The position numbers and the translations under genes are program-made. DNA of 47,079 bases, the filler included, from Sphacelaria rigidula (lineage: Eukaryota), in assembly GCA_964200075.2 (NCBI GenBank). It is 2 parts of 2 records of this genome, joined end to end, with 100 filler letters (N's around TTAATTAATTAA, not from the genome) between each part and the next. Parts side by side here need not be neighbours in the genome. Positions count along the whole stretch, not along the records: positions 23,607 to 47,079 come from CAXNAA020000260.1; 1 more part is not named here. One strand, 5' to 3'. A model generated the notes under the pieces. The model was not told the DNA's origin. It saw only the letters and a list, made by a program, of their open reading frames with translations, and ran no database searches. Of this stretch, positions 18,847 through 47,079 are shown piece after piece; position 1 is the stretch's first letter, and each line of letters opens with the position of its first letter.

Positions 18847-18849
18847 TTC

Positions 18850-19510: not shown

Positions 19511-19519
19511 TAGACAGGT

Positions 19520-19965
19520 GAAAGGGGAACCAGCTAATAAACAGCGCCGTCACCAGCCGCAGCTGAAAAAGAAAGGCGGCAGCGGGACCGCTGGGTCCAA
19601 GCGCAAACCGAATGGTGGAAAAACGACGACTACTGGCAGTGAGAGTGTCATTTCTGGGAAATTTCGGGAACTGGGCCCAAGCCATGCAGGTTATTTCTCA
19701 CGTAGAGACAAGAGCCACTTCGTGAAGGATTGCAAGCAGCAATGCCAAGCTGCTGCTCGACAACATGCTGCAGGTGGGCAGTCAAAGACCGGCGACACGC
19801 AGCAACAACAGCAGCAGCTGTCGCAGGGCCCTGGACAGGCGCCTCGAGGAGGAGGCATGAGTCCTGCCGCTACAAGGGCTCTATTTTCAACCAATGGAGG
19901 GGGTGCTCCCAGCAGCAGTGGAGCGATGCTACCGCCAGAACCGTTCATTTCTACAGGTGGCTATA
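19520..19965 (+). mobile_element. Gypsy gag C-terminal fragment
   Basis: KQRRHQPQLKKKGGSG...KSHFVKDC...QQQQQQLSQGPG; inverted copy of about 16200-16630. Confidence 0.8.
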
Positions 19966-21735
19966 AATAGACTTCTGTCACTCAAGATCTGATCGCCATG
20001 TGGACTCCTCCCATCACTGGCACATGAACTTCAGCAGCTTTAGTTATTCATCAATGAACCTTTCGCATACACAGGAGAACGGAACCACAGCCTCTCTCCA
20101 CCAGAGTAGCAAAACCAAACCTACTCGCATGAAGGTCACCCATCACAGAGTCCGGCGATCAGACCCGCAACTCCACCTACACAATGACCCTAACCTTAGC
20201 TTACAATGGTGGCTAGAGTCTACAGCACTCCCAAAGCTCTCTACTACCAACAAGTAGTTATGTCAGAGCTTAACAAACTCAGACATCATTGGTATCTGAT
20301 AGTACCGTCGTTTTCCGTAAAGAATAGCAATCTCTTCCGCTGCTGTCGATAACAGCTCCACACAAGCTTGCCCCACTTCCAAACAACTCGCAAGAGATCC
20401 CAAGAAAATGTCGTCCATCATGAATATGCAATCACGCTACTTACACCACTTCGAGTTACAAAGCGATAGCTAGCGCCAAATTCTCAAATCTTCGCCCAAA
20501 ACAAGTCTCTTGACTCTTCATCGGCAAGCATCAGAAATGTCAGCGAACGTCGAATTCCAGACCATTCGTGACTCATGGTCCCTCTCATCCGAGACAAGGT
20601 ACTTCTCAACATACAAAATGCACTCTTGTACGTTCAACATCTGCGCAACGGAGTGCTCACTTGTTGCTTGCCTTAGTCATTAGTACAACAGCCAAATGAT
20701 ACATCATCCTCACGCTAGAAGGAAATAAGCACCCAACACGTCTAAAACGTATACATCGCATGCCTCGCCGCCGTCAAAGCTTCAATGCTTCAACTTGCCA
20801 TCATTTCATCAAGACAATCAAAGGAAAGCCATGACTCAAACCGCTATTCAAGTCATGCATACTAATCCAACGACGGCGAACGGACCTCGACCTCCACCAT
20901 CATCGATCACCCCTCCCTCGTGATCTCGTTTTCGAACTCTTGTGTTCGAGCGAATCCCAGATATTTCTATATCTCATTTGGATCTTGGACCGTCATATCC
21001 CATCCGTGCATCAGCCACAATGTAGAAATACTGAATCCCTCGACACGTTTGCAGTCCACCTGTACCAGTTCTTCGAACAAATGGACGCATCATCCACATG
21101 CTCCTTCTGACATCAACGAAAAACCAACCACGTTCATGTTCAAACACGTGACAATCCATACGAAAACGTGCCACGGTCAAAGATCATCGATGCATGCGCG
21201 CATAATGTCTTTATCTTCAACCACCGGAAGCACTCGCGTCATACCTGCTCTCACATACGACGAGTCTACGCATTTCGTATCTTCCAGCTCATTTTCACTC
21301 CAACAGCAGGTGTCACCGTCTCCTACAGTCAGTGCGAGCCTACGCATTTCGCAGTTTTTTTGCTCATTTTCACGCTAACAGCAGCAATCCATACATCCTG
21401 CAGTCAGAACGTGCAGACCGCACAAATATGATTCGACTGTGTTCCTGCGCGAACAAGATTATATCAGCTTCTCTTCATTTAGAATACAGCAGTATATTGA
21501 AAACTGCGGCACCCTAAGTCGTCACCAGATACCATTCATATCAGTACCATGCGAGTAAAAATTCGCACATGCCTGCCAAAATTCGACTCAGCATATGAAA
21601 ACCCGCACATGCATGCCAATATCTCACTCAGCACATGCAATGCCACCTTCCTCGCAGCAAACACCATGTATCATCCGTGCCAACCAGATCAGCACAACAC
21701 ACACATGCCAAATATCCACGTGTACGCCAGAGTTT
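19966..21735 (-). mobile_element. 3' non-coding region, PPT and LTR family 2 (LTR about 19966-20224)
   Basis: Inverted copy of 3110-4632; the LTR part matches 8048-8297. Confidence 0.7.
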
Positions 21736-23506: not shown

Positions 23507-23606
23507 NNNNNNNNNNNNNNNNNNNNNNNNNNNNNNNNNNNNNNNNNNNNTTAATTAATTAANNNNNNNNNNNNNNNNNNNNNNNNNNNNNNNNNNNNNN
23601 NNNNNN
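23507..23606. other. Assembly gap with artificial TTAATTAATTAA linker
   Basis: 44 N + TTAATTAATTAA (stops in all six frames) + 44 N = 100 bp. Confidence 0.95.
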
Positions 23607-26025: not shown

Positions 26026-26477
26026 TCAGAGTGGTCCATCACCTCCACTACAAATACCACCACCACCGCCACCTAAAAGCGTGATCTTCGCTTCTTTATC
26101 CGGTTGTTCGTCCCCTGCCGGTGACGTTTTTTCGGTTGCTATAAAGCCTCCCTCACCCGTGTCTCCGAGACCTACGTCCACGGGTGATATCTTACTCGAT
26201 TTGTTTTTCGAGAAAAAGGACGGCAACCCCTTAGTACCGCCGATTTTGCTGTTGCTCGTGCTGCGAGGCGACGTGGTCGTTTCCTCTGCCGTGCTGCTTG
26301 GAATAGCTCCAACACCCACGCCACCACTACCGACAACGTTGCTTGGGCTGCTTTTACTATTCTGTGGCTCCATCGGCGGTAGTCGTCTGATCATGTGTCT
26401 GCTGCTGCTGCCGTGACTGATGCTGCCGTGACTGATGCTGCTACTGGCGCCAGGCGCATCAGCATCAGCATCAGCAT

Positions 26478-26516
<39 letters not shown>

Positions 26517-26611
26517 CACTCGTAGTGTGGTCACCGGCGCCATCAGCGCTCTCTCGAAGCCCCCTATCAGCAGCCCCTGCCTCAGCAACGCATGTTGTTG
26601 TTGATGTCGAT

Positions 26612-26642
<31 letters not shown>

Positions 26643-29600
26643 CAGACGAGGAGGAGGATGACAGCCGTTGGCCCGCCGAGAGACTTTTGCCCGAGAGACT
26701 TTTGCCCGTGAAACTCGTACCCAGGCTTATAGAACGACGAGGGTACGTGCTGACACTTTCCCCGGGCAAGGACGACTGCAGTCTAGTGCTGGCTCCCAGG
26801 TAATCCGAGCGTTCTTGCTCCTTCAGCGCGTCCTCTGCAGCTTTCCCTTCAGACTTTTTTTCGGTCACAGTTGTGGCGGCATCGGAAAGAGGGGGGAGGT
26901 GGGCGCTAGGGAGTGGAACACAAGAGGGTGGGGACAGAAAGCGCGCGCCCGAGGGGGTACGCAGGGATTTGGGGGCAGGGAGTACTTGCGTGTCTTAGTA
27001 TGTATGCATTAGTAAATAGTTGCTCTGCCATTCGATCGCGCGTTGCCGAAAGGACAAAGGGTAGGAGGATGGTGTGGGTAGGCACGAGATCGGCGGGGGG
27101 GGCTCGATCGGGGAGACGATGTCGATACGGAGACAATGAAGGAGTCCAAAAACATTGAAAAAGTATCGAATACATTACTATATATCTAACGAATTACGGT
27201 ACAGTGAATACTGAGGGATGGAGAATTTTGTATCTCTTTGCGACTGCAATTGTGCGAATTAAAGCAAACCACCAGTCAGAGAAGGAGGGCTCATCGATGG
27301 AAGAATCTCAATACGGGATGCGGAGGGTGTCACCGATCTGCTGGCCGTACGGGAAGGTGCCGTTCTGGACAGGACAATGCCTGAGACGATGGGGCTCCTT
27401 CGAGATTTCGAGTGGAGTGTATCTTGGTGACTGTACTGATGAAACGAAAAACACTCGGACATAAGTTGAATTGGGCACTGCGAAGAATCCTGGTGTTATT
27501 TCTATTCTGTTTAGAGGAGGGGGGAGGGAATGAGTCAATGGTTCAGTGACGAAACACGTGCCTGCCGATGGATATATATATATATATATATATATGTATC
27601 TGATTGATGATGAAACAAAAGTAGCTGCTACGGATTTTCTGACTGGCGCACATTTCGACATCCCAGAGACTCAGTGCTTCTGTTGACTAGTGGAATGATG
27701 CCGTGTTATCATCCAGAAAAGTCTAATAGAAACCGAGGCAAAATCTGCATGTAAGGTCTTCAGACCTGGTTTCTGAAACCTCTATGTCTTCATTCTTGAA
27801 AATATATTCTAGAGCTGGTTTCGGAAACCAGCTATTTCTGAATTGCGCGAGTGGAACTTTATAAGCGCTGGTTTCTGAAACCGGCTACCTGCAGTCTTCA
27901 AGATGAATGATGAGACCTGATTTCCGTAACCACCCATCATCTCGATGCACTACATGACCATTTCTTCGCGACAGATGAGTTCACCCTTTGCGCGCGGGGG
28001 GGGCGGCGGCGGCGGCGGCGGCGGGGGGGATCGCGGCACCATTCATGTACATCTATTATAAATCAAGGTATGCATCAACACGATTCAGCAGCTTAAGCTT
28101 CTTCGATGATTATACCAGGCACTGCAGACAGGCCCACGAAAAGCGCCTTCCCATGGCCGCCTTCTTGTTCAGCATGGTGTCCGTATCCATCCTCGCCTCC
28201 AAATTCCACTTGCGAATCTGAAGCCTCGCGTGCTTCTCCAACAATGTCATCTTGTATCCCAGAACAAAGATCGACAGCACGAAGCTTACCTGATGGTTGT
28301 TAGGAATAATATATATCAGCAGAGAAGCAGAGGCGCCGATTAACATCAATGCGCTGTATATATACATATATATATATTGCCGACATCAACTCTGAGCGGC
28401 TCAGACATCGACGTTTCGCGCTGTGTCTTTTCGCTGCGATGGTTTAATATACATACATACATATCCACCGCGCCCCTCTTGTCCGGCCGGTACAGGGCAA
28501 AGTCAAACCGGTTAAGGGAGAGTTGGGGGTTCGAACTCCTGTAGAGATACGTCCTTTTCCTCCGTCGTTTTGACGCAAGGGCGTAAGTAGCTGATGGGGT
28601 ATATTTGTCGAACACCGACGCTGTGCGGAAGTATAAACCAATCTGCGATGCCAAGATGTCGGGTATGGGTATGGATATGTGTGCCGGAGGAGAGACGGGT
28701 TGGTTCCTTGAGACGAAATACTCGTCCCGAGCGAGGGAAGAGGTGGAACATGTTACGGGAAAGAACACACACATATTTATATGTACATGTGTATATATAT
28801 GTACGTATTTTGGTTGACGTCGACAACTGTACGTATCAGACTATGAGGTGTGGGTGTACTCATGATCTTGAATACCGTCGTCATCATGTGGCCACTGACC
28901 TCGCATCTCTGCAAATCGGGACGGAGCACACCTGTTTTTCACCGGACCGGGCTCGGAATCGTCAAGCTCGAGGCGCCGTGATGTGTTTGGCGAGTCGCAT
29001 GAGGGGTGATCTGCATGCTGCTAAGATTGTTCGACCCGAGAGGCGTACTAATTACCTTTCATAAGAATGACAGCCTCGGACGAGCTGCTTCATTTTCTTG
29101 TATCACAACCTCCAGAGACAGCCATGGGTTATACACTGCCTCATGGGTGTCTCACCATTTAAACACTACGTAGTACGATCATCCCCTTTGCGGGGACTTG
29201 AGGTTCTCCACCCCGTACGATGATCTAACTCGACCACCATCATGGGTACCGCAGGAAAACGCAGGCGGGAAAATAAAGGGTAGCCTGGTTGCCGAGCTTA
29301 CGCAGTAAGTGGCGTGTTTTTACAGCGCCGCTGTCAACCGACGCCAACCCTTCAAGGGAGCTGTACATCGGGCGTGCGGATTGGCAAGGGGTAAAGCTAC
29401 ACTAGGTTATCGTGTATTGTTGCTGGCTTCTCTTCACATCGAAACCCTTTCCGATCTCTGCGCAGTAACTTCTAACCTCCGTACCGAACATCTGATTCGG
29501 ACCCCTTCCGTAATCACAGGCCAACTACCGAGTAACTATCCGAATCAGGGTACCAGGAAATCGAAGAATAAAAATGAAGAAAAAGGACCCAGGAAGATCA

Positions 29601-32600
29601 ACACAGGCGCGAAAATTTGAAAGGAAGAAATGATGATGTTAAGGTTGATCTTTTTTCGCTTGTAACGCACACATTGCAATGATATCACACGTCGGACAGA
29701 CAATGACCCGTCTGAAATGACTAATCACAAAATATTCTAGAATTCGTTGGTCTACGAACACAAATATGTGACCGCGGAGTCAGGAAAGCCGGAGCGCAAC
29801 CTTCGCGCTACTAGGCGTACTCAGCGCTGTAGTGAAAAAACATGTAAAAGGGGGGATCAAATGATCCGGATCATGATCCGGATCAGACTAATGCCGAGAT
29901 AGCCCCCCCACAGAAAGTGCACGGGGGATCGTCCGACAAACCGGCTGCGATCCCACTATTGGGCTCATTTGCAGCAATTCCGCCCACATGAAAGGCTTGT
30001 AGCAGTCCGAAATCAGCTATAACGCCCAAATAAGTCGCGTCGTGGAACACGAAACCAGCTCTAACGGCATTTATGATCATCGCCTCCGTGCACATTTTTG
30101 GCCGGTTTCGGGCGGGGGCTATCTCGGCAGCGGTCATCAGTACACTGAGAGGAAGTAATTTTCAGACGGAGTTTTAATCTATCTGTCTGATGTGTGAATG
30201 CTATATTGACCCCGTATCCTGCAAGGTATGGTCTCGCCGGTGGCATTCTCGATGATTTTAGCAGAGGGTGTGAAGCTCTCTCGCGGCATGAAACAAGCAA
30301 AAACCAGAAACGACATTTTCTACGATAGCCCCCCTCCAAAAAGTGGCTGGTTTGGGGAGGCAAAATCTACACGTATATCGAAATGAAGAAAGCCGAACAC
30401 AACGACTAGCTGAGAAATCCCACGCTTGGGTTCATTTTCGTCAATGTCACCCATATGAGGCGCTTAATACAGCCCGAAACCGAACGTCAGGCGCTGTTTT
30501 ACCATTTTCTTTGTGACAGTTTTGGGCTGTTTTTTTTCTGGGGGGGGGGGGCTATCGTAGAAAGCGTCGAACGTGTTCTGACGGATCATCGCCCTCTCGG
30601 CTGCTCTATCGCAAGCGTTATTTGGAGCGTGATACCTGGGGCTGTTTCATGAGCTAAACATTTTTCCCATTGAGCCAGTGAGCGCACACTGATTCAACGG
30701 GCATCTGATCGCTTCCTGAGCACCCATTGAACCAGTGAGCGACTCACTCGTACAATGGGCAAATTGTTCGCTTGTTGAACAGACGTGACAGCGAATACCC
30801 GACCTAGTTTCCGTTGTAAGAAGACGGAGACGTCGCCGAGACCTCTGACGTCCAGAAATGATCATCGAGAAATGCCTCGGTGACCGGCAAATTTCCTTCG
30901 CCCACTGCGGGTACTCGTTATAAAAGAAAGTCGAGGATGAGTTTGCCATGGCTCCCAGGTCATGAATCCCGTATAACATCTACGTACGGTCGAGATCATT
31001 TTTTTTTTTTCCTTCTGTCTTTTTGGTGTGTTTGGTACGGCGCTTACCATAAAAACGACGTTGTTGGCCAGGTGCGGCTGACGGAGGAGGAGAAAGAGAT
31101 TGAGGAGGAGAAAAGGGACGTCCTCGAAGACGGCGATGATGATCCGCATAGAATTCAGGCTAATCAGACGCTGCACGCCGATGTGATGGCTCAGGTACTT
31201 GTAGTTGGCGAGGTGTGCAATCGATGACGCGGTGCCCAGGAAAAGGCGACGGAGAGGGAGAGGAGATGGCACGGGGAGGGGAGGGGGGGAGGGGAGAGGC
31301 GTACTCATTTGTTGCTTGCCTTAGTCGTTCGATCATTNNNNNNNNNNGCCTTAGTGGTATGAATAGTCCACACGCCACCCGTTCGGGACGGTTCACGGCC
31401 TTCGTTCCATATAGAGCAATCCCCATCATGGGACCGGGGGGGGGGGTCATGGTGGCGATCAATTTAATCCCGAAAGGCGTTGCCTGTAACCAATACACGG
31501 TCCGTGACCATGTTTCACCCATAGTAATACTAGACGGATCTTGTGATTTATCGCACTATACCAAACGCTGCACCGGAGGTCACGGCAGCGGAAGGATTGC
31601 TAGTATGTTGCTACAAGATTTGAAGTATGATCACGATAAACGACCGAAACAACAGCAATGCTTGATAGAGTGGGAGAAAAGGTTTTCCTCTGCACGATTC
31701 TGTACGAGATCAGACCTTAGTCAACCATTTCGCAAGGTTATTTTTACTACAGTAGTAGAGCTACTCGTAGATTTTCTTCTTTTTCTTTTGCAAGTATTGA
31801 AGAACTGCAAACAGTACCGTCCGTTCAAAAACACAGTATCGACGGTGTACATGTTTTCATGACGGTTTCGTTCAACAACACACCTTGTTTCCCCGGTCGA
31901 AAGGTACGTGCCGACGACAGGTCTTTTTCTGGGTCATGATCTGCAGTATGCTGTACTGCTTTTCGTAGTACAGCATGTTGTTCCCCGTGATCGCAAGCCC
32001 TACGGTGCGCTCCTGGATGGTTGTATATTTTTCGGTGCAGTGCGCACGCATGCAGGGTAGGTTCAAATACGGCAGCAGTAGACGGCGAAAAAGAAAAAAA
32101 AGCACAGAGGGGGGGGGGCAGCAAAGACTAATCATCATCAAAGCAGGAGCTGCACGTCTTTGGCTACTTGTGTGCAGCAAACAGAAAAAGGGGCCTTTAC
32201 GGGGGGGGGGTTATCTGACGTTCGGTCGTTGTGTTCGGGGGTCATGACTGGCGTATGCCGGGAGCATGCGCATACCACTAGTGCACCAGGACGCATGTAG
32301 CGATATGAATGCAGAGTTTTACCTTGACACACAGGATCCATCGTAACGCGCATGTTCAATACTATATATGGTTTGGTGGTGAGTCGCGGACTCGGGCTCT
32401 GTTGAGGACCCGATCCTTTCGTAGGCAAACCGCTCCGCGCCTGCAGCTTGTACGCGACAAGAGACTCATGTTGAGTTACCCGGTTTACATCGCAGAGAGA
32501 CAACAAACAGGTCAGCAACAACATCCACGCCCGAGTTTTTCCAAAAAAATACTGTTGGGGGTACGGAAGGAGAGGTGTCGGCGACAAGGATGGTGCACGC

Positions 32601-35600
32601 ACGGGTGGGGAGCATCCTTGGCTTGGGTTAGGCATCGAGTCGTCAAACTACAACAAAAATGTTGGGTACTTTCAACTGTTGGAGATACCTCTTGCATGTC
32701 AAGGATGATGATGGCCCGCGTGTGCACCCCATGAAGCGATGCCATAAGGGCAAACGCCACAACGATCGTGTACACTATCTTCATCGCGCCGGTCAACGCA
32801 GCCGTGTAGAGCAGAGAAGCATAAGCCCCTAGATCCGACATGAGGTCCATGATTTCGACTCCGCTGAACATGCTGTGTTTTGCGGGATGATCACACGCGG
32901 GCGGAAGCCGGAGAGCGAGGGAGGGGGTGGGCTAGCGGCTTAGCCTCGTACCCTTCGTATTTGTTTGGGTCACCGAAGCTGACGGCAGTGCTCCCGAAGA
33001 TCGCATCTTCTCGTGTAGATGTCAAGGGCGCGTGTCTCAACTTCATTTTTATCACCATCACGGTAAACTTCACAATGTCGTAGTGTGTATGGGTATGAAG
33101 TCCTCTTTGCTCCTAAGCCTTGAGCAGAGTACCGCTCAATGCTTGTCGAATCCCGAATAGCGTACTCGTACGGGGATGTGAGAGTAAAGCGACTTGGCGT
33201 ACTGTGGACGCCATATATGGATAAATTCACCACTTGGTGAACTTGTGGGGGCTATATTCTGTCCTGAACGCTCTGCACGATGTGAAACAGCACAAGCGAC
33301 AACACTCGGATACACAGACATATATCACAAGCACACGCGATGAAACTAAACCGCTAATAGTACAGCGAACACAGCATGCATCACTATTGCATGTTCACTC
33401 CAGACTCAGAATGTACAAAAACGCACGCCACACACACGGAGGACCCAACCCCATGCATCTCGAAACTAAAGGATGAAGAGTCAAGCTGCTCCTATCGCTG
33501 TGTACGCTGCCTGCGGAAGATCTGTTCACCTTATCCAGAACTGCTGTGCCACGATAAATCGGTTCATCTCCTCGTTTAGCTTCATGTGCACCTTCTCCGT
33601 GACCGGAATCCGCGTTCGGCAATTCTTCTCGAGGTAGGCGTAGATGAGTGTAAATATCACGAGAAACACGCCGGCGATGAGCAGATACAGCCCCACGAGC
33701 GTACCGTCTTCCTCCACCTCGGCGTAGCACTGCGATGACCCCGACTCGGACACCTGGTGGGACGTACGTGACCAAGACACGTGTGTAATTATTGCATGGA
33801 ACGAAAACTCCAGTCAGGCGATCTGCTCGTATCTGGCTCCACCTGTATGGGCAAAGATGATACATTGGCAGATGAACTGCGAACTCTCTGATCCCCATGG
33901 AAAAAAATCTTAATGTCACCGTTCTGACGTGACGTTTTGATACGTAGTCTTTGTCTCTTTTGGCGTTCGATTCACCCTCGGGGTATTCAATTGTTTTCTT
34001 GAACGGAATGGGAACAAATGCATCGCCACGGAGTGATTTACCATTCAGCATTCACGGCACTCAGCAACGGCTGTGTTCGCAGTGGCTTTTCGGCTTTTGC
34101 ACAAAATTCTCTTCATGTTCGACGGGGAAATCCATGTTGCGCGTGCTCCTACCGATCCGTTGAGACAGACGGTGCAGGCCTCCAACGACACCGCCCCGTA
34201 GTTTGGCTGCGAGAAGTTGGTAGGGCACTCCAAGCATGTAGAGGAACCAGTAGCGCCAACATCGGCAGAGTAGTATCCTGGCCAACACGAGGTGCACTCG
34301 CTCTCTGCCTTGAGCCCTTGTAGGTCAGAGCAAGCACAGAACTGTTTCGGTATGTGATCAACAGTGGGTGTTTTTTCATCATTTCGGATTAGTGCTGCAA
34401 TCGCAGGCAGTCTTACCCCGTGTACACAGTAGACGTCTGAGGGCAGACCGCATGGCTCGGTACAAAACATGGGAGTAGGAGTATACGAAAACGATGTCCC
34501 GCACAATGGAGTTTTGAATGGAATAAAGCAGTACACGTCCCAAGCAGCAACAGCTGGACATAGGTTCCGGTTGTCATGGGTCGAGTGCCCTAGGTAGTCC
34601 ACGTGGATTCTGTTCATGCTTCACCGCCTCCCTCACCGACCCAGCCATCAGTAGAACACAAATATTGCAGAAACATGAACACTACGCGGTCATTTCAGTC
34701 CAATAATATCACCACCCACTGGTGGTCGACCTAGTGTACAACAACACTATTTTGGGGGAATTTCGTGAAATTTGAATCCCGACACATTAATGAAGCTATT
34801 TTTTTCAGTTTCAGTCGGCCGAAAAATTGAGGACGAGATTGACAAATGTAACTCAAAGAAAGCTGACGGGTTGCAGTAGTGCAGATCCTATGCTCGATAA
34901 TAAAGCATACGCTAATCGATGGAGAGGAGGCGGGTAGATCCCCCTTGAGACTATGCACATGTTCTGAGGAACGACGGGAGGGGGGGGTGGTCAAAATCAC
35001 GACATGTTTTCGAATATACTAAAACTCAGTATCGCCGTTCACACCGCGTGTCCACTATCTCCCTCAGCGAAAACCCGGCGTGCTCCGTTCCGGCTTGGTA
35101 GGGATTCGAGGCCAATAGTCATAATACTACGGCATGCAAGATCATGCGTACATCTCCCCCTAACCCCCCTCCCCGCCCCACTGCCCCTCGAAGCTGAGCC
35201 CTCCACGCGTTATCAACCCACATGTCACCTTGCACTGCCCCGTACGTCCCGGCAGGACACAAAGTACAGTTTCCCATGGATGAGGATCCTTGGGCAGTAC
35301 CGTAAGTACCCAGAGGACACTGTGAGCACTCCGACAACGAGGCTGCCCCGGCTGCATTTGAGTACATGCCACTGGGGCATGGAAGACATTGGCCAGCGTC
35401 GTTTCCGTACACGTGCTTGTATGTGCCTAAGCCACATGGCTGGAGGTTCGGCAGTGGTAACGAGTGCGAAGCGCCGTAAGAGCGAATATTGTAGAGTGTT
35501 GGTGGCGCACGTTAAGATGAAATCTGCATCGAACAGCATGGTGCGCTCGAGGAGCAGACGTACGACAAGGCGACACCGACAGATTCCTTCGGTCTGTTTA

Positions 35601-38600
35601 GAGCCTAGATAGGGTGGAAGCTTGTCTGTCGTCTTACACCCCTCGTTGGAACCCTCTCTCTTGCCCTCTCTCTTGACGTTTCACGCTTGGCATACAGGCT
35701 CACCTCACACAAACCAGTTGCTTCAACAAAATAATGCCCTGGCCCGCACTCACACGAGGTGAGATTTGTAGCTCCAGCCGTTGCCGTCCGTGATCCGGAA
35801 GGACATGCTACACACGAGGGGCCAGGGCCAGTTCCACCCTTTCGTTTAGGGTCATCCGAAAAGTCAGACGGTGGGAGTATATGTGTTGTGTGCGTTTTCG
35901 TCCTATCTATCCTGGGCGCCCACACATTCTGGTGTATGTCAGCGTACCAGCCGGTGTCATAAAGGAGGAAGGTCACACAAGAGTCGTTTTCCCATTTTCT
36001 TTCCGGAGTGTTCGCCATAGTTTTGTGGGACAGAGAAAATGGGCATGATTGCATCATAGAGGCGGCTACCAACTGCCCGGTAATTTCCATTGATGCTCCC
36101 GATGAGTGAGTGCTGTCATAAACGCACTCACCATAAGAATGCGGATTAAGACAAACAAACACATCAGTGAATACATCTGTTCTCTTGGTTCCACCTCACC
36201 CTTTCATCGTAAAAATCGGCAGAACAAACGCATTGCCTCTCTTCCCATCTTCCAGCCAGGAGTGTTGTTGAGTTCGCAGGGCACGCCTGACAAATGCTGA
36301 CGAATGCGCCATCGTCATTGTTTCCCATTCTCGCATCATTTCCTCCGGCGTACCATCCCAGCGGGCACTTCGTGCAGTTCGCTCTGGACCCTTCGTACCT
36401 GCACTACCAAAATATGAATATTTACCGAGAAAACGGCATGGAGTCGAATGGGGTGTATAATGACCTTGGCTTCGACGAAGGCATTCTTCACTTGTTCCGC
36501 TACGCGTACACAAAGGAAAGGCGCAAATATTATGGTATTGCAGGACAACTTTGTACATGCTCTTGCAGACGTGGATTCAGTTTGTGCTATGTTATCCATC
36601 TTTTCTCGTACCCATAAATTTATCGGGTCTCGACTCACCCCTACCGTAGGCCACAAAAATTTCCTTCCAATAGCGCTCGCTGGTCAATTCCTCGATAGAC
36701 CAAAACAATGAGCGCCAAAATGACTCCGTCGACACCCCCTTTCATTGCAACATCCCATTGAATAAAAAATGCCTCCTCCCGACTCCCCCTCGAACTCTCA
36801 CCCGTCTCCGCAGGCACAAATGGAGTAGCGATCATAGGCAGGGTCCAAGACGACGGCGACCGCATCGCTCCCCTCGCTCCCAGGGACAGCATAAAGCGAG
36901 GAGCACACCGAAACATTATCGGTTGCCTCATATAAGAAGATGTCATCTTCGCTGTCTTCACCGGCCGTCACGGCCGCCGCGGCAGCTTCAACGTAGGACG
37001 GCAACGATGCATTGGAGAGGCTGGTTCCGGTCGCATAAAGCATAGTTAGGTCGGAGTAAGACTCCGGGATCGCACCAGTTATGCCCTTGTTATTCGAGAC
37101 ATCGAGAACCTCTATCCTTCGCTTGCCTAGGTGTATCGTCGCTGGCAGTTGCCCTTCGTGGTGTGTTTGCCGTTGGTAGGATGCGTGCATGCGCGTACAA
37201 GGGTAGATGGGTGCGACAGGTGTGAAGAAACCGATAGCTTGCTCGCGAAGCGTGGATGGGTGGGGTGGTGAGGATTTTGGCGAGAGAGCGGGATGCTGTC
37301 CTTTTCTTCTTGATTCACTTTGTAAAAGCTGGTGGAAGCCAGATGTAGTCAGCCGATTGCGATCTCGCGCCAAAGATTGATCCGTTGGAGAGGCCTTACT
37401 GTGATTCTCGCTTGTGGTTTTCGAGTTTCAGGGCACTGGAAGTCAGGCGCTTTTCCTCGCACTAGTACCTGCGGTGCTCAACGTGCTGGACAATATGGAG
37501 TTGATCACACGTCGGACAGAAAATGACTCGTCTGAAATGACAAATCAAAGAAGATTCTCGGACCTGTCGGTCGAAAAACACAAAATATGTGACCGCGGAG
37601 TCAGAAAAACCAAACCGCAACCTTTGCCCTACTCAGCGTGCTCGGCGTGCTTGGCGTGCTCGGGGTCTGGCGCTGTAGGGGGCAAACATGGGAAAGGGCG
37701 GCCAAATGATCCGAATCATGATCTGTCCGACGTGTGTTGATGAGGCAATATTGCGTAATAACCCACATCCCAGTCACCAACAAACTGTACGTCGATTTTT
37801 CATCCTCAGCTAAGCTGCCGTACGAAGCTTGCCTGTCGCCTGAGAGCACCTGTCAAGTCATTGCTATCCAGTGCGACTATGCGCAACAAGGGTCCTGCAG
37901 TGCCCGTAGCTTCCTCGTCGCAAGCGCTGCTGTTACCCCCTGCCGACGCGTCAGTATTGCAGTAGAATAGCGTTAGAACATCTTCCACGGATCCAGTCAA
38001 GGCATTCTTGCCCATATCCAACGTCTGCAGTGACTTGAGGGCAACGACTGTCTGCAAGGTCACGTACACCGTTGCGTTCAGAGCATTTCCTCGCAGTATC
38101 AGCGTGCGGAGTTCTGGTAGCCATGAAGATTCCGGTGCCAGGTGCACCACAGGGTAGGTGTAGCCGTTTTCAACCATTGAGCTGCCGTTACTTGCGTTGT
38201 TGTTCACTTCCAGCCACGCGCTCGGAAGAGAACTGCTGTGCGCGGAAAGCAAGTTTGGAGAGCCGGCCAAACCACAACGAGGAAATAGAGGGAAGGCGTT
38301 TGGTGTTTATACGCAAGAATGACTTCATCATCCGGGGTACCTATGTGAGAACCCGCGCAGTGCTACGCTCATGTTCGAGTTATGATCATAGCAGTGTCAG
38401 CAATACCGAGTGAGTGAATGAATACTTCTGCAGATTTTTTGTATGTATGATGGAAATTTTCCCATACCGCGGGCGTCGTCGTCGAGTATCTGCTGACTTC
38501 AGTCGTGCAGAAGCGAGGATCAGATTGCGGAGACAGCCTGCATTCGTGACACCCTAATTGGTACCGCATAGATGACATTTTGACTGATACGAAGACCAAC

Positions 38601-39263
38601 AGACAGCAGGATGGGGCCGTGCTCTGAATAGAGTGCTTGCGGGAGTATTGTGTATAGCCGTTTGTGAGCTCGTCGTCCCGGACTCCGATGGAGTGATGAC
38701 AAGTGACGCTGGAAAGCATGTACGAGATACGTCTGGAGAAGGCTTGTTGTATCGTACGAATATTTGTCCAGTTGTGAGTGATCCCTTACCCCTCACCCAG
38801 ATATGGCATTGCTCCGGACGGAGAGGTGTCGAAGTGACGAAGCGCCGGAGCCCCAAGATGAGGGAAATGAGGAAAGGTTGTTTTCGGAAAGATCAAGAAC
38901 TTCCAGTGCAGGCATCATACCCAAAACCAATGGCACTGCCCCGTACAGCCCATTTTCGGACAGATGCAGCTCTCGAAGCGATGCAATATTTGCGAGTTCA
39001 CTGGCGGAAGATAGGTCCCCGTCCAGGTTGTTGCTCGGTAGAGACACGGCGGTCACGTTTTGCGATGTACTGTCACATGTCACCCCATGCCAGTTACACA
39101 CTCCCGCAGCAGCATCGAGCCACCCGCTGGACGTGGTCCACTGGTATCCATTGGTGGCGACGTAGAGTGCCTCGAGTCCGGTGTACTGGAGGTCGGTATA
39201 GGCGGATTGTCCGTACAAAAGGTGAACGCAAAGGCGCAGATGTAGAATTAGGAACCGCCTCAT
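26026..39263 (-). CDS. Gene A: LRR + Cys-rich (TNFR/GCC2_GCC3-like) repeat receptor-like protein with about 5 TM helices and a Ser/Ala-rich C-terminal tail, about 1180 aa
   Basis: Phase-compatible exons reconstructed by eye: 39263-38797, 38235(or 38232)-37850, 37153-36802, 36398-36200, 35838-35704, 35439-35229, 34316-34153, 33753-33530, 32872-32689, 32012-31908(or 31884), 31197-31048, 28289-28161(or 28116; donor uncertain), 26853-26026. Signal-like start MRRFLILHLRLCVHLLYG; LRRNT LEALYVATNGYQW...CNWHGVTC; LRRs such as LEVLDLSENNL; repeats such as CPSGMYS and CPLGTYG; hydrophobic segments LVGLYLLIAGVFLVIFTLIYAYL, IVYTIVVAFALMASL, IIIAVFEDVPFLLLNLFLLL, VVFMVSFVLSIFVLGY. Confidence 0.85.
29686..30196. 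mobile_element. MITE with CACACGTCGGACAGA TIRs, containing an internal inverted-repeat-bounded segment (29892-30129)
   Basis: Left TIR at 29686; right TIR TCTGTCTGATGTGTG ends at 30196; flanks AATGATAT / AATGCTAT. First 200 bp match 37506-37736. Confidence 0.7.
30311..30569. mobile_element. MITE with about 22-bp TIRs
   Basis: CGACATTTTCTACGATAGCCCC ... GGGGCTATCGTAGAAAGCGTCG; partial copies at 24655-24839 and about 46870-47000. Confidence 0.75.
31338..31347. other. 10-N assembly gap inside an intron of gene A
   Basis: Direct read; an additional exon could be hidden here. Confidence 0.95.
37506..37736. mobile_element. MITE, 231 bp, perfect 15-bp TIR, in intron 2 of gene A
   Basis: CACACGTCGGACAGA ... 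TCTGTCCGACGTGTG, flanked on both sides by TTGAT. Confidence 0.85.
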
Positions 39264-39603
39264 TCGACTGGCAATATAGATAAGTGCATCAGCCAATGCC
39301 TTATATTCAGAACAACACCTTCGAAAGCAGGGAAGAGGTATATTCAACGAGGAAAGAGGCCAGCTATGCATTCGCAGGCATCCCACGGCCGAACACTCGT
39401 AGATCGTAGATGTGGGGACTGGTGTAAAGCTCGATCGCCAACCGTCACTAATCTCACCGCACCCAGCGCACAAGGCCAAGGGTGCAGCCGGGTCAGCCGG
39501 GGATTGCAACATGATCCACGATCGCCGCAGCCAGCTATACGGGCGATGACGAACGAACCAGGTACACAGTATCCCCAAGAGTGCAGACAACGAGACGTCA
39601 ACA
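39264..39603. promoter_or_regulatory. Putative bidirectional promoter / shared 5' region of genes A and B
   Basis: 340 bp between the inferred ATGs (minus-strand ATG at 39263, plus-strand ATG at 39604). Inferred from geometry only; no motif identified. Confidence 0.55.
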
Positions 39604-42600
39604 ATGCCTCACAAAGATCGATCCATCAACAACGGTGGTCGATTGCGCTCGACCCTTGCTTCAGCCGTGGCCACCTTCGCAGCAGGCGGATGGAGGCTCC
39701 TCCTCCCGCGTTTTGCGAATGTCGCCGCGAACATCTTGTCTAATTATAGCGATGCTCAATACTACGGACTCGAAGTCCTCTATAATGCCACCGATGGAGA
39801 GCAGTGGACACAGTCCAATGGCTGGCGCAACTCAACGCTAAGTGTGTGCAAGTGGCATGGGGTGACCTGCGACGCTGACTCGGGGAATGTGACCATGCTC
39901 TCGCTAGCTGACAACGGTCTCTCAGGGAACTTGACAGCGGAAGCGGGGGAATTAGATTGGTTTTTCGGCATCACATCTTTAACGGATATTGATATGTCAA
40001 GCAATCGGTTGGTCGGGCCTGTGCCGGCCGGACTGGGTATGATGCCTGCTCTGAAGTCTCTTGATCTATCACGGAACTTACTGTCTTCATTCCCGGAGGC
40101 CTGGGGATCGAACGCTACGTCCCTAGAGCACCTGAGTCTTCAATTTAACAACATTTCGGGGTAAGCGGCATAACAATTGCGGGGGGGGGGCATTCGAGGC
40201 TTGTGTAAGCGCTACTATACACTACAACAGTGCAAAGCACGATAATCCGACCAGTCGCTCACTTCAATAAGTGTTGTGCGGGTGAGATCAACTGCTATGC
40301 CAAAGTGGCTCACGGCTGGAGTGTGACGTTACATGTTGGCACTAAACAACTCAGTCGCCGCGTGTCGGCCGCTGTTCTCCCACGAGCATTTCAAGCAGGG
40401 TCAGTTCTTCCACTTGATTTTGGTATCGAACTGTTGGCGTTCTTGTGCTTTTGTGCATGGTGAAATCATGGCGTTCTTATACTTGATTCCGGTATCACAT
40501 AATCGATTTGCTCTATACCTCTGATATTCTCACGCCTAGCGTGTATCGGAGCGTTGGCTCTTCCAATATTTTTTTCCCACCAACACGAGAGCCAACGTTG
40601 CGATAATTTTATGTGAAAAAAATAAATTTCAAGGGCGTTGTGTTCGTGGTTTTGCGGAGCCCTTTCGGCACCTCAGAGGTGCACAATTTTGCAAAGATTT
40701 CCACATGGAAAAGTGGTCGCTATAACTGGCCCTCAGGTACCCGATGCTACACAAAACCAGAGCGCTGATTGCTCAATATAGTATTGGGTGACGACGACGT
40801 GTGCAAAGTCAACACTCGTCACAGGTGCCCGCCCACATAACAAACTCTGCACGATCCTGATCACGTCATTCTGCTACCGTTGTGCCCAACGAAACACGCG
40901 ATGTACAATAGGACGTTGCCTTCACAGTGGCTGGACCTCAACGACAGTACTGCCACAGACTCCTATCCGCTAGTGCACTCGGAAGAGTTCTCCACCTGGC
41001 TACCAGAGCTTCGGACCCTGTCCTTGGGCAGCAACAACATCACCATGACCGTCTACCAAGCCTTGCAATCATGCATTGGCCTACAGTCCCTACAGAGCAT
41101 AGACTTCAGCAACAACGTCCTAACGGGAACCCTTGATGGAGGATTCGACTGGTACTATTGTGAGGATCAACATATCAGCAATATCAGTAACACCTCGTGT
41201 GAATCGGCATCTCTGAGATCAGGAGCATCCATCGTGCTGGCAATCTTACTGCTCGGATCGAACTTGATATCTGGGGGAGTCGCACAGGAGGGCGCTTTGC
41301 CGTTGTCTCTCTCCGTGCTCGCAGTTTCGCAAAATTTATTGCACGGGCCGGTGCACGAAAATTTCTCGCAGCTGTCAGTTTTCTTTGCTGGTGAGAAGAA
41401 AGTGGTGCCGCAGGATGTGCTCCAGTGAGACTGACAGAGAGAATCCGGGATGGAAAGAGTTTGTAGTAGAGGTTCGAATAAAGTTTGAAGTAAATCGTCG
41501 TCTGTGCGGTATGCTGTATGGCGTATCGGATTTCGATTTAAGAACAACGGCCCGTGTTGCTAGTACCCTTCCTGCACACTCGACCGTACGCGAGCAAACG
41601 AGCTGGCAGCGCCTAGGAGCGGGTGATGTGTTAGGGTTTTCAGTGGTAATATATCCGTTAGGTGGATAACAATGCACTTGGTGACTGAACGAGGGCAGGA
41701 CGATATATCATTAGCCGTCGTCATTCGATGGCGACGGGAACGGGAACCGCGCCAGAAACACTTGACAAGCTCACCCCTGGAGCAAGGTAGTACTGCATAT
41801 ATTTCATCTAGACATGACGGGCTCTTGGTGGACGTTTTCAACATGAATCAACGAGGCACATCGACAACAGAACACACGTGTACACACACATTTTTCCCGT
41901 ATTTAACCATCGTAAGGTGTTTCACCGCAGATGGCAACAGCGGACTAAACGACACATCGCTCCCTAGCTTTGCGTCGTACGCAAACAGCACGGCAATTAC
42001 GGTGGGACACGGAAACCTAACTTGTCCTGCTATCTCGGGTGAGAACAACTACGACGACTCTGGGAAGGCAGGACCTCACGTCCGGTTGAGACTCGATGCC
42101 TCCTACCTAGGGTATCGCCACTGCGTTTGCAACCAGGGCATGGAGGTGGGTGATATACCAACTAGGGTAAGGGGACATAAAAAGCAAAAACAAGTAGCAA
42201 AAATTCTGGCTGGCTTGGTGCGCGAAGGTAGTCTTACTTGAGTTGAAGCGTTGTCGAAGTTACCGTTGGCGAAGGGAAAAACAAAGTTGATACGTTTTGT
42301 GAGTGATGCTGCCGACCATGTGATTCGTTGGTTCACAGAGTATTGTAGTGCGCAGCCTTCTAGCAGGAGTACATCGCACAGAATTTTACGCAACAAGATG
42401 AGCGTACGGGAATGATGTAAGAGAGGCCCACTAACGCGTACGAGATGAACGTCTTCAATATGCTCAGTCCTCGTCTATTGAACCAAAATTATTTCGAAGA
42501 TGATATCACCAGCCGCAGCAACAAAGCGGTACCTTGCATGTTCAGGGGAATTTCGAGGCGGGATGCGTACCTTGTCCGAGGGGAAGCTACAGGGAGCACG

Positions 42601-45600
42601 CGGGGCTCTTCGCTTCGCCGCACTGCACTGCGTGTCCGGTTAACTCCGGTACTACGATCACTGTAAGTGGGTTCAACCTCAAACTTGACGAACTGGGGGG
42701 AAAGTAATCTAGCAACCCGAACCATAACCCTTTACTCGCCTTCCCTTAGAACTATCCGCTTGGGACATCATGTATATCTACACACACATATACATATATA
42801 TATATATATATGTGTGTGTCTAGTTTCGTCTTGTTCCTGCCGGCGCTTTTGCTTGAAGAATTCCGTTGAATCTCTCACGAGGTATGCGTACATGTGTTCA
42901 ACGCTCCACTTTTCTTGAGACGAGTCGACAGCACCAAGGGACCATCCCGCCTCGCTCCCGGTACTTGCTGGACTATACATTTTCCGACTTTTATCGATTT
43001 TATCTGATACGCACGTCCTCACGATTTCAACGACAAAGACAAGAATAAAGGGTAGAAGACATATGTGATCATACTCTTGAGCACCCGGAACCATAAAAGA
43101 GGTCCACCTGAACTGATCGTCGGGGTACGAGTCCGATCACCGGGGCGTGACCGTTGTGTTCACGAGTATTGCATCAATAGATGCATTACCGTACGCGTCA
43201 TAAAACAAGAACCAGGGGGGCAGGGAAGAGAATCCCACGAACGGGATCTCACACAAGCCAGAACGTCCTTGCGGTACGCCGGCGTACATCAGGGCGCCAA
43301 AAACCTCGTCACATACTACTGTACTCTTCAATCCTTCCCGACAAACGTGGCGCCACATGCTGTCTGTGTCTCACCTTCTGCAGGGGGCGGCATCCCCCTC
43401 GGAGTGCAAATGTGATGCAGGTTTTTACGATGCCCTCGCGGGCGAAGGGGAAAGTGGACCCTCTTGCACACCTTGTGTATCTGAAAGCGGCGGGTGGAAT
43501 TCGCCGGGGGCGATCGACGTGACTGTTTGCTCATGCTCGGCCGGCAGCTACCTGGACCGCGAATCTAGGACTTGCGTGAATTGTCCGATGGGGACGTATA
43601 AGGTCAACAGCTAATGTAGTACAGCAGGCAATACCGTTCGGTTGTGCGACTATGTAAACGCATGTTGTACGATGAGATTTTTTTCCATACAATCAGCCCT
43701 ACTTCGAGTGCGAGCATAGGGTGTTGAGCCGAGAAAGCGAGGGGTTTTCGCTGCTTGCCCGATTGCGTCAAAACCTCGACGGGTATACCGAGGTTGCGCA
43801 CGAAATCTGTCATCACACTCATGCAGATTAGTAGTTCGTGCTTGCTTTTCCTGCGTGACTAATGACGTCGATTCTGTCCCCTGCGCTAACATACACTCGA
43901 TGGAAATATGCAAAGCTGGGTTACCACATACTTACCCTTTTTTACCCTCCACTCGTCCCGAATATACGCCTTTCCACCCTGCCGTGGGCTTTCAGCCTAC
44001 TGAAGGGAATGACAGGAGTCTTTGTTTGCCATGCGTTGAGGGGAGCTACTCCAGTGAAACCGGACAGGTCTCCGCCGACACGTGCGCGGTATGAGAGAGC
44101 TGTGCCTTGCTCAGTTTTCGAACCCCTCGCTGCAGGTGGAATTTTGGAGCTGGGAGGGGGGGAGAGGGGGGGGGAGGGGGCAGACGTCTAGATCAGGCAC
44201 GACTCCTTAATGAATGTAAAGACATGTGTTCCGAGTGACGAGGAATAATTATCGCCCGTCTCGGGTCAACACGCTCGCTTTGTCTCGTACCTTATGAACC
44301 TTTATTTTCCAGTAACGCATGCTGTCTGCATATTATTCCCCAGAACAAAAGAGACATTCAACACGCACATCGCGCTCGCATTATAAGGACGAAAAGCACC
44401 AGAGTTGCATACTATTTACTCTCAAGACGAATACTCCTGTTTTCGACGGGGAAGATGTCCTTGCTGTAAAAGTAGTGTACCTCCCCTCCCCTGTGCACCA
44501 CTCCGTCTCGAAATGGATGCGTGGTCAATGGTCAAACGACTAAGCCAAGCAACAAATGAATACGCCCCCCCCCCCTCCCCCCCGGTGTACCACACACACA
44601 TCACGGCGCTTCGCGCTTGGTGATCGCGGGCCTAGTCCGACGAAAACCCGGCGTGCTCCGTCCTGGCTCTACATGGATGCAAGGCCAATGACCATATGAC
44701 TACGGCATGCAAGATCGTGAGTACACCCGCGCACCACTCCCATGTACGCCCTCCCCTGCATTTTTTCCGTAACTCGTCTTTTGTGAACAGTCGTGCGACG
44801 TGGGCACCTACTCGACGACAGTAGGGGCCGAATCGTCTTCGGAATGCCTGCCTTGCCCCAGCGGAAGATATTCCTCCCTCACCGGGCTCTTCGACTCCGA
44901 GTTGTGCATGGCTTGCCCTCCAGGATACTACCAGGAATATGAAGGTGTGCAGTCATTATGCTCAGAAACATGAGTTCGAGCAGCCACGAGGGAAGGCGCA
45001 GACCACATGCGGTGGTTGTGGCGCCAGCTATATCTCGGGACTCAGGGTTTCGTGAGCATGCCGGCGGGAGGGGGGGGGGGAGGGGTACTTGTATGTTGCT
45101 TGCCTTTGTCGTCTGACCATTGACTATGCATCCCTTGCGAGACGGAGCATGGTGGAGGTGGGGGAGGTTGTTCACATGATAAGCGCTGCGGGAAGTAATC
45201 AAACCTATCGATCTCCGTGCTTTCGGTCTAACATCATCACAACACTGACAGAGGGGTGTCGAGCTGCAGTACAGTAGCTCAAAGTGAACACTCGACTCGA
45301 ACTACCATATTGTTGTCACGTACCTCTATCGCACTATTATAGACAAGCTGTCGCTAAATACGCAGCTCGACTTCATTCACACAGCACCGACTTCATTCAC
45401 ACAGCACCGACTTCATTCACACAGCACCGTGCCCTGGTTGGCGCGTTACTTGCGTCGTGTTGGTGGAAGGTGGCCGCGCGGGGTAGCGGTGGGGCGGGGG
45501 TATGAGGAAGAGCGAGGAGTATCTGGATGGTTTGCAGAACATGCTGGATGCAAGAAACACTTATGCTGTCAGCACATCCGCAACCGTGCCCATGCCTCGC

Positions 45601-46454
45601 TCAGTCACGAGGGGGACGAAACGCGTGACTCAGCACTACTATCTTGAAGGAACATACTGTTACATGATTCACGACCCAGATCTTCCCAAGAATATAGAAC
45701 ATGAGTTCCTTCAAGACACAGTCAGGCACTTCTCCTCCTGTTCTAATGCCTTGTGCGACAAATCGCTCTCTCCGCGTAGAGATGCAATTGCCTTAGCCCT
45801 GGAGTCAGTAATCGCCCCGACGGTTTTCGCCTTCTTGTCGCGTGGGTATTTATAACGAGGCGTGTCCGTTTTTTTCTTTCTTCAGGAGCAACAGACTCGG
45901 AATCCTGCGAGCCGTGCGACCCCGGCAAGTACTCGACCGAAATTGGTGAGCATCCGTGGATTGTGGAAAGGAGATAGTGGGACAGATAATAACATGCATC
46001 CCCTTCGAGACAAAGCATCGTTCCTACTCCTGAGTGAATGGGCGCGCACGGGGGGGGGGGGAGGTGAACGTGGGAGTATCGCGTGCTTCACATTTTTGTC
46101 CTCCTGCAGCGGTCAAGCAATATTGAATATTGCACACAGATGTAACCGCGGCCCTTGTTATCCACGGTACAGAGATCATTCCTCGACAAAAAAAAAGAAT
46201 GTACTCTCCGCTCTCGTTCGTTGGTGGTCCTTCTGTCGTTGCTCTCTCTCCTTCTTCCGCCTTTGTATTGGCGACAGGCGCGTCGTCCGGGAGTTCCTGC
46301 AGCTGGTGCGCCGACGGGACGTATTCACTGGGGGGCAGCCACGAGTGCGAGTTGCTCCTGACCAACTCGCGCAGGACGCTGGCGATCTATCTCATCGTAG
46401 GGTCCTCCACCCTGACCGCCATCATTATCTCCTACTTTACCTGGGAGAGAAAAC
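39604..46454 (+). CDS. Gene B: paralogous LRR + Cys-rich repeat receptor-like membrane protein (about 690 codons visible; 3' end probably beyond the window)
   Basis: Phase-compatible GT-AG exons: 39604-40160, 40912-41390, 41931-42145, 42546-42662, 43384-43602, 43996-44088, 44791-44944, 45886-45945, 46278-46454. LRRNT LEVLYNATDGEQW...CKWHGVTC; LRR LKSLDLSRNLL; repeats CPRGSY, CPMGTY, CPSGRY, CPPGYY, CDPGKY; TM LAIYLIVGSSTLTAIIISYFTW. Collinear with gene A. Confidence 0.85.
44495..44730. repeat. Dispersed intronic repeat family
   Basis: 44640-44727 matches about 35067-35152 and, in part, 23630-23657. 44498-44583 matches 45066-45150 and 31290-31337 in inverted orientation. Confidence 0.65.
45368..45429. 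repeat. Perfect 20-bp tandem repeat x3 (CGACTTCATTCACACAGCAC)
   Basis: Direct read of the sequence. Confidence 0.95.
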
Positions 46455-46869
46455 GTGAGCATGGCAACAGTTCAGACTTTACATCGAGGACGAAGACTCG
46501 ATGAGGAGAGGAAAATGTGGGAAGAAAGGGTATAGAGGTGTTACAGCAAGCAGCGGTTCGCTAGTAAGAAGAACTATTTTTACATACAGGTTGATCTGAG
46601 GTGTAAACCCCAAGCGTATTCATCCGCAAAACCTCATGCTGGTCACGGTTTATGAGGTTGGACCTTGAGGTTGGACCTTGAAAATTTGCACGCGTGTCAT
46701 TCAGGTCATTACGAAAAAAAAATAAGGACCTGTTCTTTTGCGCCGGATATCGAGGGAACCAGGGATTTCGGGGATTTTCGGGGATCATATGCCGTTCTGG
46801 GATCCCCGATAGCCGGCGAAATAATACATTCAATAAACGTCCTTGAATCATTTTGCAATGGAGTAATCC

Positions 46870-47000
46870 CGCGATAGCCCCCCCCCCCCTCAAACTAACC
46901 CCCCAAACTACCACGAAGAAAATTGCCATACAGTGCATAGCTGGTTTCAGACTTCATGAAGCCCCTCGTATGGGCGACATTGGCGGAAACGGTTCTAAGC
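46870..47000. repeat. Partial inverted copy of the 30311-30569 MITE family
   Basis: CGATAGCCCCCC terminus; CTTCATGAAGCCCCTCGTATGGGCGACATTGGC matches the reverse complement of about 24720-24755. Confidence 0.6.
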
Positions 47001-47079
47001 ATGAAAATACCTACAGTAGTCAGCGTCAGAAGTATGCAGAACCCTTAATTTCTTAGTTTCTCAAAGATTGTCCAAATTT

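Follow-up and report, generated by a model that had tools for sequence, protein, structure and literature searches.

Introduction

Complex multicellularity evolved independently in brown algae, and to our knowledge little is known about the surface receptors of these organisms beyond receptor kinases. Plants, oomycetes, and brown algae have leucine-rich repeat (LRR) receptor kinases and receptor-like proteins that carry a signal peptide, an LRRNT/LRR region, and a single transmembrane (TM) helix. Here we describe a gene of Sphacelaria rigidula (NCBI GenBank assembly GCA_964200075.2), called gene A, that shares all of these features. However, where LRR receptor kinases use a kinase as their output domain, gene A instead carries a membrane module of four helices. 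The window, meaning the whole stretch of DNA analysed, comprises 47,079 nucleotides and also includes much of a divergent paralog, gene B. In a genome survey of brown algae, the membrane receptors given are LRR and beta-propeller receptor kinases, and the passages of it that were searched do not mention the module family (bioRxiv 10.1101/2024.02.19.579948).

The described proteins to which the module can best be compared are the animal XK-related (XKR) lipid scramblases XKR8, XKR9, and XKR4 (PDB 7DCE, 7P16, 9BOJ). As set out in the structural report on XKR9, the chain is built from two related repeats. Each repeat contributes four TM helices, and the intracellular loop that follows the first two of them holds a further helix that is partly inserted. 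The intracellular loop that connects TM2 with TM3 holds the helix termed IH1, the hallmark of the family is the presence of acidic residues on helices TM1 and TM3 in the N-terminal repeat, and a conserved PQL sequence puts a kink in TM3 (PMC8298096). Scrambling by XKR8 is reported to require D26, D30, K/R134, E137, E141, and R183, with L27 and L31 lining the same helix as D26 and D30, and Q145 is also given (PMC8500837). The same report describes XKR8 in complex with basigin, a single-pass partner with Ig domains that packs against the scramblase. The XKR4 counterparts of D26, D30, and E141 of XKR8 are D125, D129, and E313, and TM3 of XKR4 is broken at P316 (PMC12334663). For mouse Xkr4, extracellular Ca2+ is described as bound by the segment D123-V-G-T-D127 and by E310 (PMC10495444).

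A receptor-like gene with a four-helix membrane module

Gene A very probably encodes a receptor-like protein that has a new, highly constrained four-helix module as its output and is free of any kinase. The predicted protein consists, in order, of a signal peptide, LRRs, cysteine-rich Ephrin_rec_like repeats, a first transmembrane helix (TM1), the four-helix module, and a cytosolic tail (Table 1). The domain assignments come from P0008, the 917-amino-acid counterpart in Ectocarpus, which carries Ephrin_rec_like (E=1.3e-28, five stretches), LRR_8 (E=2.3e-11), and LRR_4 (E=4.3e-11) on the N-terminal side of a single TM helix, and the window aligns to those parts. The start codon is probably the ATG at 39263, and the joined translation of the exons ends with a TAA stop codon at 28110.

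The five exons of the TM1 and module region (Table 1) join to form a single open frame of 279 amino acids, and all four introns between them have GT...AG ends. Two of the hydrophobic segments, IVYTIVVAFALMASL (32734-32778) and IIIAVFEDVPFLLLNLFLLL (31084-31143), are each uninterrupted in the genome on the minus strand. Two others are split by introns, such that FWI|S|MFSGVEIMDLMSDLGAY straddles the intron 33529-32873 and VVFM|VSFVLSIFVLGYK straddles the intron 31047-28290. The splice joins rest on splice signals and on gene predictions from other species. Specifically, the same joined protein is predicted as P0008, P0009, P0010 (with one junction mis-predicted), P0011, and P0012, and is seen in predicted proteins of Ectocarpus, Laminaria, Discosporangium, and Chrysoparadoxa. 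The architecture of gene A recurs in predicted proteins of Ectocarpus, Discosporangium, Chrysoparadoxa, an EukProt species, and one further NCBI cluster. TA-rich microsatellites, which read as IYIYIY in translation, lie on both sides of the gene A 3ˊ end at about 27540-27610 and 28340-28390.

These results bear out several proposals of an earlier sequence-only reading of this DNA. It had described four hydrophobic segments with acidic residues after the first TM helix, a receptor ectodomain fused to a multi-pass module, and an output other than a kinase; the segments are all present in one spliced frame, the fusion is as described, and a kinase domain is absent. The lower end of the interval that it assigned, 28116..33753, falls a few bases inside the last exon.

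Table 1. Predicted features of gene A and gene B in the S. rigidula window
Feature	Position	Strand	Basis
Gene A, type-I receptor-like protein	28110..39263	-	tblastn with P0008; Pfam domains of P0008; first Met before signal-peptide-like stretch
Gene A ectodomain exons: LRRNT/LRR, then Ephrin_rec_like/TNFR-like Cys repeats	34160..39263	-	tblastn with P0008
Limits of high-scoring segment pairs in the ectodomain (approximate)	39206-38796, 38237-37836, 37154-36804, 36391-36170, 35868-35700, 35436-35227, about 34350-34160	-	tblastn with P0008
Exon with TM1 (LVGLYLLIAGVFLVIFTLI) and basic/amphipathic juxtamembrane stretch to QQFWI	33530..33728	-	donor AG/GTGAAC; Kyte-Doolittle 2.82
Exon with module helix 1 (SMFSGVEIMDLMSDLGAYASLLY; E, D, D) and helix 2 (IVYTIVVAFALMASL)	32689..32872	-	93.5% identity to P0008
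Cytosolic-loop exon with amphipathic helix (NNMLYYEKQYSILQIM)	31884..32012	-	82% identity to P0008
Exon with module helix 3 (R-IIIAVF-EDVP-FLLLNLFLLL) and start of helix 4 (VVFM)	31048..31197	-	82% identity to P0008; motif invariant in A-type
Last exon: rest of helix 4 (VSFVLSIFVLGY, SxxxS), conserved cytosolic helix, tail (RGRRFSW, CxxC), TAA	28110..28289	-	93% identity to P0008
N run of 10 letters (assembly gap) in the intron between the loop exon and the EDVP exon; coding sequence untouched	31338..31347	.	
Gene B, divergent B-type paralog, head to head with gene A	39604..47079	+	tblastn of P0079 onto the window

Residues of the module are numbered here as in the 273-amino-acid module of P0008. 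TM1 (about residues 5-27) is followed by a basic juxtamembrane stretch and then by helix 1 (47-83), which bears E67, D70, and D74 and leads through a short outer loop into helix 2 (90-126). A cytosolic loop of about 40-70 residues comes next and includes an amphipathic helix (133-148) that is weakly predicted (AlphaFold pLDDT about 50). Helix 3 (165-204) bears R183, E190, D191, and P193, and another short outer loop connects it to helix 4, which continues as a long cytosolic helix (212-262) and bears S217 and S221. The tail includes invariant RGRRxSW and CxxC motifs. Kyte-Doolittle hydropathy, calculated with a 19-residue window, reaches 2.82 for TM1, 1.89 for the IVYT helix, 2.25 for the EDVP helix, and 2.11 for the last helix. 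The acidic helix 1, FWISMFSGVEIMDL, scores only 0.97 because of its acidic residues, and the AlphaFold model still has a long helix there.

Conservation is concentrated in the module. E67, D70, D74, E190, D191, and P193 are invariant in the four full A-type modules that were aligned, and all are present in the window, which is the outcome that the sequence-only reading had anticipated for the acidic residues and the proline. Four positions (E67, D70, D191, and S217) are invariant even across A-type proteins, B-type proteins, and the distant relative P0073. Judged from these alignments, the acidic-helix feature is no chance pattern. The window module is 84% identical to that of Ectocarpus, 77% to Discosporangium, 75% to Chrysoparadoxa, and 63% to Phaeothamnion. 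In contrast, the ectodomain exons are only 31-59% identical to P0008, and therefore constraint is much stronger on the output module than on the part of the protein that binds ligand.

The closest protein matches of the window are from the brown algae Ectocarpus, Laminaria, Discosporangium, and Scytosiphon, with related proteins in Chrysoparadoxa, Phaeothamnion, and Heterococcus. Pfam assigns no family to the module, nor to the Laminaria module-only protein P0010. When 1.84 billion cluster representatives were searched exhaustively with HMMER, 66 matches were obtained at E<=0.001, nearly all of them fragments of the module family the size of a single exon, and no known family was reached. Two distant long members were recovered, namely P0070, a B-type paralog of 934 amino acids with 25% identity, and P0073, a protein of 672 amino acids with 28% identity whose ectodomain differs and whose cytosolic loop is much longer. 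The same search returned the short fragments P0075 and P0076, with 32-33% identity. The order of ectodomain, TM1, and module is common to the B paralog and P0073. From this distribution, the family seems to be limited to brown algae and their close relatives Chrysoparadoxa, Phaeothamnion, and Heterococcus.

Gene B and the A/B pair

Gene B is arranged head to head with gene A, and the inferred start codons of the two genes are about 340 bp apart (39263-39604), which suggests a shared bidirectional promoter. TM1 of gene B ends at 46498, and its four-helix module lies past the end of the window. The order of LRR, cysteine-rich region, TM1, and four helices is common to A-type and B-type proteins, and the modules of the two types are roughly 20% identical. 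The B-type motifs read LETIDVITGN and VVMDLP, in which only the first aspartate and the proline are kept.

The pairing seems to be repeated in assemblies of other brown algae. In one EukProt proteome the two genes are numbered consecutively (g17844 and g17845), and equal contig sizes alone suggest that A and B also share a contig in Scytosiphon (99,088 bp) and in another NCBI genome (40,203 bp). A divergent paralog in this position makes a dimer of two halves plausible, and the sequence-only reading was right to look to the adjoining gene for a candidate second half.

Several B-type fragments (P0124, P0128, P0129, P0138, and P0141-P0143) match only as far as LETIDVIT, with intron-like text beyond. 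The B-type genes would then have an intron inside module helix 1, whereas helices 1 and 2 of gene A are encoded by one exon, and so intron positions seem to differ between the paralogs.

Comparison of the module with the XKR repeat

In layout, the module would resemble the XKR N-terminal repeat (ND, TM1-TM4 plus IH1) in its four helices, in a weakly predicted helix in the cytosolic loop between the second and third, and in its probable orientation. The type-I TM1 of gene A would end in the cytosol, and therefore helix 1 of the module would run from inside to outside and the 2-3 loop would be cytosolic. This orientation, which follows from the predicted type-I topology (signal peptide, ectodomain, TM1), would fit that of an XKR repeat. 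By analogy, the predicted loop helix NNMLYYEKQYSILQIM may be the counterpart of the partly inserted IH1. A cytosolic C-terminal tail that looks regulatory is present in both XKR proteins and gene A.

The likeness extends to the residues on which XKR function depends. In both cases, helix 1 carries D-L-x-x-D-L, and helix 3 carries a basic residue followed after six positions by E-x-x-P-x-L. Within A-type helix 1, D70-L-M-S-D74-L has the spacing of D26-L27...D30-L31 in XKR8, and within helix 3, R183-x6-E190-D-V-P193-F-L has the spacing of R134...E141...P144-Q-L. Hence the XKR acidic pair and E-x-x-P motif are found at identical spacing and are invariant in all four A-type modules as well as in the window. 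The A-type module departs from XKR proteins in having the additional invariant D191.

Predicted folds may point in the same direction. AlphaFold models were made from homologues, namely the A-type module of P0008 (8-sequence alignment, pLDDT 69, pTM 0.56) and the B-type module of P0079 (9 sequences, pLDDT 63, pTM 0.47), and both were compared by VIA-align with 48,161 PDB representatives. For the A model, the XKR matches are rXKR9 (7p16_A) at rank 1 (alignment values 10.5, 3.3, and 147, with model residues 49-240 matched to chain residues 1-190), hXKR4 (9boj_B) at rank 3 (10.3, 3.4, 153), and hXKR8 (8xej_X) at rank 17 (8.4, 3.2, 146). For the B model, they are rXKR9 at rank 1 (11.7, 3.8, 139), hXKR4 at rank 5 (10.1, 4.9, 147), and hXKR8 at rank 9 (8.9, 5.8, 158). 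The N-terminal repeat of XKR9, XKR4, and XKR8 thus provides the best natural structural matches for both models. All of the XKR alignments fall on this repeat, with sequence identities of 12-15% for the A model and 9-11% for the B model. As far as the models allow, the fold evidence appears consistent and repeated, and short of decisive.

A further lead comes from the ESM Atlas. The clusters nearest to the A and B modules are hypothetical proteins without names (0.82-0.88), and the sole Pfam-bearing cluster among the nearest, for both A and B, has XK-related annotated on 25% of its members (score 0.79).

A number of observations weigh against a relationship with XKR proteins. Neither PF09815 (XK-related) nor PF09772 (TMEM26) was found in any of the eight modules searched, even at E<=10, a threshold at which Pfam returned only scattered chance matches (for example, DuoxA at 0.015 and DUF4010 at 0.067). 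A profile search of PDB sequences gave six weak and unrelated matches, none of them XKR, and phmmer searches of two single exons against PDB sequences gave none at all. Foldseek comparison with the PDB returned nothing at E<=0.001; its top rows are designed bundles and ferritin-like proteins, and XKR is absent among the matches listed (42 rows, ranks 1-49). The VIA-align matches tie with generic and designed four-helix bundles, and both models are moderate in confidence, derive from 8-9 sequences, and have much of their input alignment in common, such that they are not fully independent. Moreover, if helix 1 is aligned without gaps, the range for XKR8 (51 to 7) would place D70 on D26 and D74 on D30, a register that would hold for XKR8 alone, and the range for XKR4 (48 to 106) would be three residues out of register. 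At the level of individual residues, the A-type module lacks a counterpart of XKR8 E137 and has F in place of the Q of PQL, B-type proteins lack equivalents of D74 and E190, and P0073 lacks the proline.

The proposal of a half-XK module in the sequence-only reading is therefore upheld in part. Topology, motif spacing, and the top natural match of two models speak for it, whereas the Pfam and Foldseek searches do not. Membership in the XK family proper was rejected on two grounds, in that a profile match and the two-repeat architecture are both missing. An XKR chain has two repeats and eight TM helices, whereas the gene A chain, with TM1 plus only four further helices, provides one repeat, and therefore the gene A protein stands outside the XK family.

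The likeness to TMEM26 (PF09772) put forward in the same reading did not hold up. Its sole link to the module is the (E/Q)DxP motif named in that reading, and membership was set aside given the empty profile search described above. No solved structure of TMEM26 turned up in the fold searches made for the module models. Literature searches found nothing that joins XK-related proteins and TMEM26 as homologs and nothing that joins Xkr with brown algae, and a search for Ephrin_rec_like in Ectocarpus returned only unrelated matches.

Possible functions of the module

Taking these lines of evidence together, we tentatively favour the reading, to which we would give not quite an even chance, that the module is either a relative of the XKR N-terminal repeat, with a single repeat in the chain, or a close analogue of it, and that it acts as a dimer, probably with gene B, by way of a buried acidic cluster. 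It may work like one XKR repeat and could possibly have been derived from one. In such a mechanism, the acidic cluster buried between helices 1 and 3 would form a site for a cation (Ca2+) or for a lipid headgroup. Two modules, most likely those of A and its B paralog, would associate so that the halves make up an XKR-like core of eight helices, and binding of a ligand to the ectodomain would alter the packing of this core. We infer homology to XKR proteins, dimerisation, and any scrambling or ion-related activity from the comparisons above.

The XKR8-basigin complex offers an analogy for the overall design. There, an ectodomain-bearing single helix accompanies an XKR-type bundle, and gene A would combine both in one polypeptide, with an LRR and cysteine-rich ectodomain rather than Ig domains. 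Relative to XKR proteins, gene A has an extra N-terminal TM1 and a large ectodomain, and it occurs in brown algae and their relatives.

Somewhat less probable, although still a serious alternative, is that the module is a four-helix bundle particular to this lineage, without any relation to XKR, and that the likeness of motifs is convergent. Such a bundle might serve as a platform for dimerisation and anchoring, with the extremely conserved cytosolic loop and tail (basic RGRRFSW, CxxC) recruiting conserved cytosolic signalling partners and the buried acidic residues doing no more than stabilising helix packing. This explanation would account for Pfam and PDB sequence searches that match nothing and for generic and designed four-helix bundles that tie with XKR in structural matching. 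It also agrees with the finding that the cytosolic loop and tail are conserved like the helices, with many invariant positions in 119-183 and 226-272, and with an occurrence in brown algae and relatives that is far from the animal proteins behind all of the XKR papers and structures used. However, five acidic residues in two helices that are invariant over deep divergence would be odd for a mere anchor, and D, D, R, E, and P are spaced exactly as the functional XKR residues are. Furthermore, all three XKR representatives lie within the top 17 (A) and top 9 (B) of 48,161 chains, with the same repeat aligned each time.

A more ambitious version of the single-repeat reading is unlikely. In it, A and B would be the two parts of a split XKR-like scramblase fused to receptors, or of a Ca2+-gated pathway for lipids or ions, in which each half contributes its own LRR/Cys-rich ectodomain to the eight-helix core and a ligand directly gates scrambling or cation entry. 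If true, this would be a kinase-free receptor output not known from any organism, and it would show that the two-repeat XKR fold evolved from a dimer of halves.

We likewise consider it improbable that an oligomer of the module forms a cation-conducting or cation-sensing pore without any scrambling, a ligand-gated, channel-like receptor in which a ring of E and D residues would act as a selectivity filter or Ca2+ site. The conserved intramembrane E..D...D and ED residues are compatible with such a pore, as are the published accounts that the equivalent residues of Xkr4 bind extracellular Ca2+ (PMC10495444) and that K+ enters the vestibule in simulations (PMC12334663). However, no sequence match to known channel families was obtained, and channels score below XKR in structural matching and lie within noise.

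Finally, the ectodomain/TM1 exons and the module exons could belong to separate transcripts, as the long introns (up to 2.7 kb, one of them with an assembly gap) might allow, but such a gene-model artefact is highly improbable given that splice phases are compatible and every junction is GT-AG, that independent predictions from at least five species or assemblies contain the fusion, that the B paralog and P0073 share the same order of parts, and that the module exons have no preceding start codon or signal peptide.

The gene pair represents a deeply conserved receptor family whose members range from Discosporangium, which branches early, to Chrysoparadoxa and Phaeothamnion. If the module is related to the XKR repeat, then the XK fold would not be limited to the animal proteins that these papers studied, and a natural single-repeat form would bear on the origin of the two-repeat scramblase. 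Receptor signalling in these organisms could then proceed by way of membrane lipids or Ca2+ and not by phosphorylation. If there is no such relationship, the module is still an undescribed and highly constrained signalling module.

Other features of the window

Two near-identical, inverted open frames of 176 amino acids are found at 177-707 (minus strand) and 5096-5626 (plus strand), and the sequence surrounding them repeats gag-like frames that include a CCHC zinc-knuckle-like motif (about 4505-6272, 15895-16929, and 19452-19970). By its sequence, the first 23 kb looks like nested or duplicated retroelement copies. Open frames at 17973-18852 (minus strand) resemble, by eye, the C-terminal region of an integrase with a chromodomain-like end after it, with no Pfam match at E<=0.001. 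Pfam analysis of seven neighbouring open reading frames gave no family for six of them. At 18907-19395 (plus strand), an open frame has a sub-threshold match to DUF659 (E=7.3e-5, 22.9 bits against a cut-off of 34.7) and may be the remnant of a gene associated with a DNA transposon.

Just downstream of gene A, a putative gene at 26026-26994 (minus strand) consists of an open frame of 322 amino acids that is rich in Ala/Ser runs and has no Pfam family. Runs of N occur in the window at 23507-23550 and 23563-23606, and a third is the one inside the gene A intron listed in Table 1.

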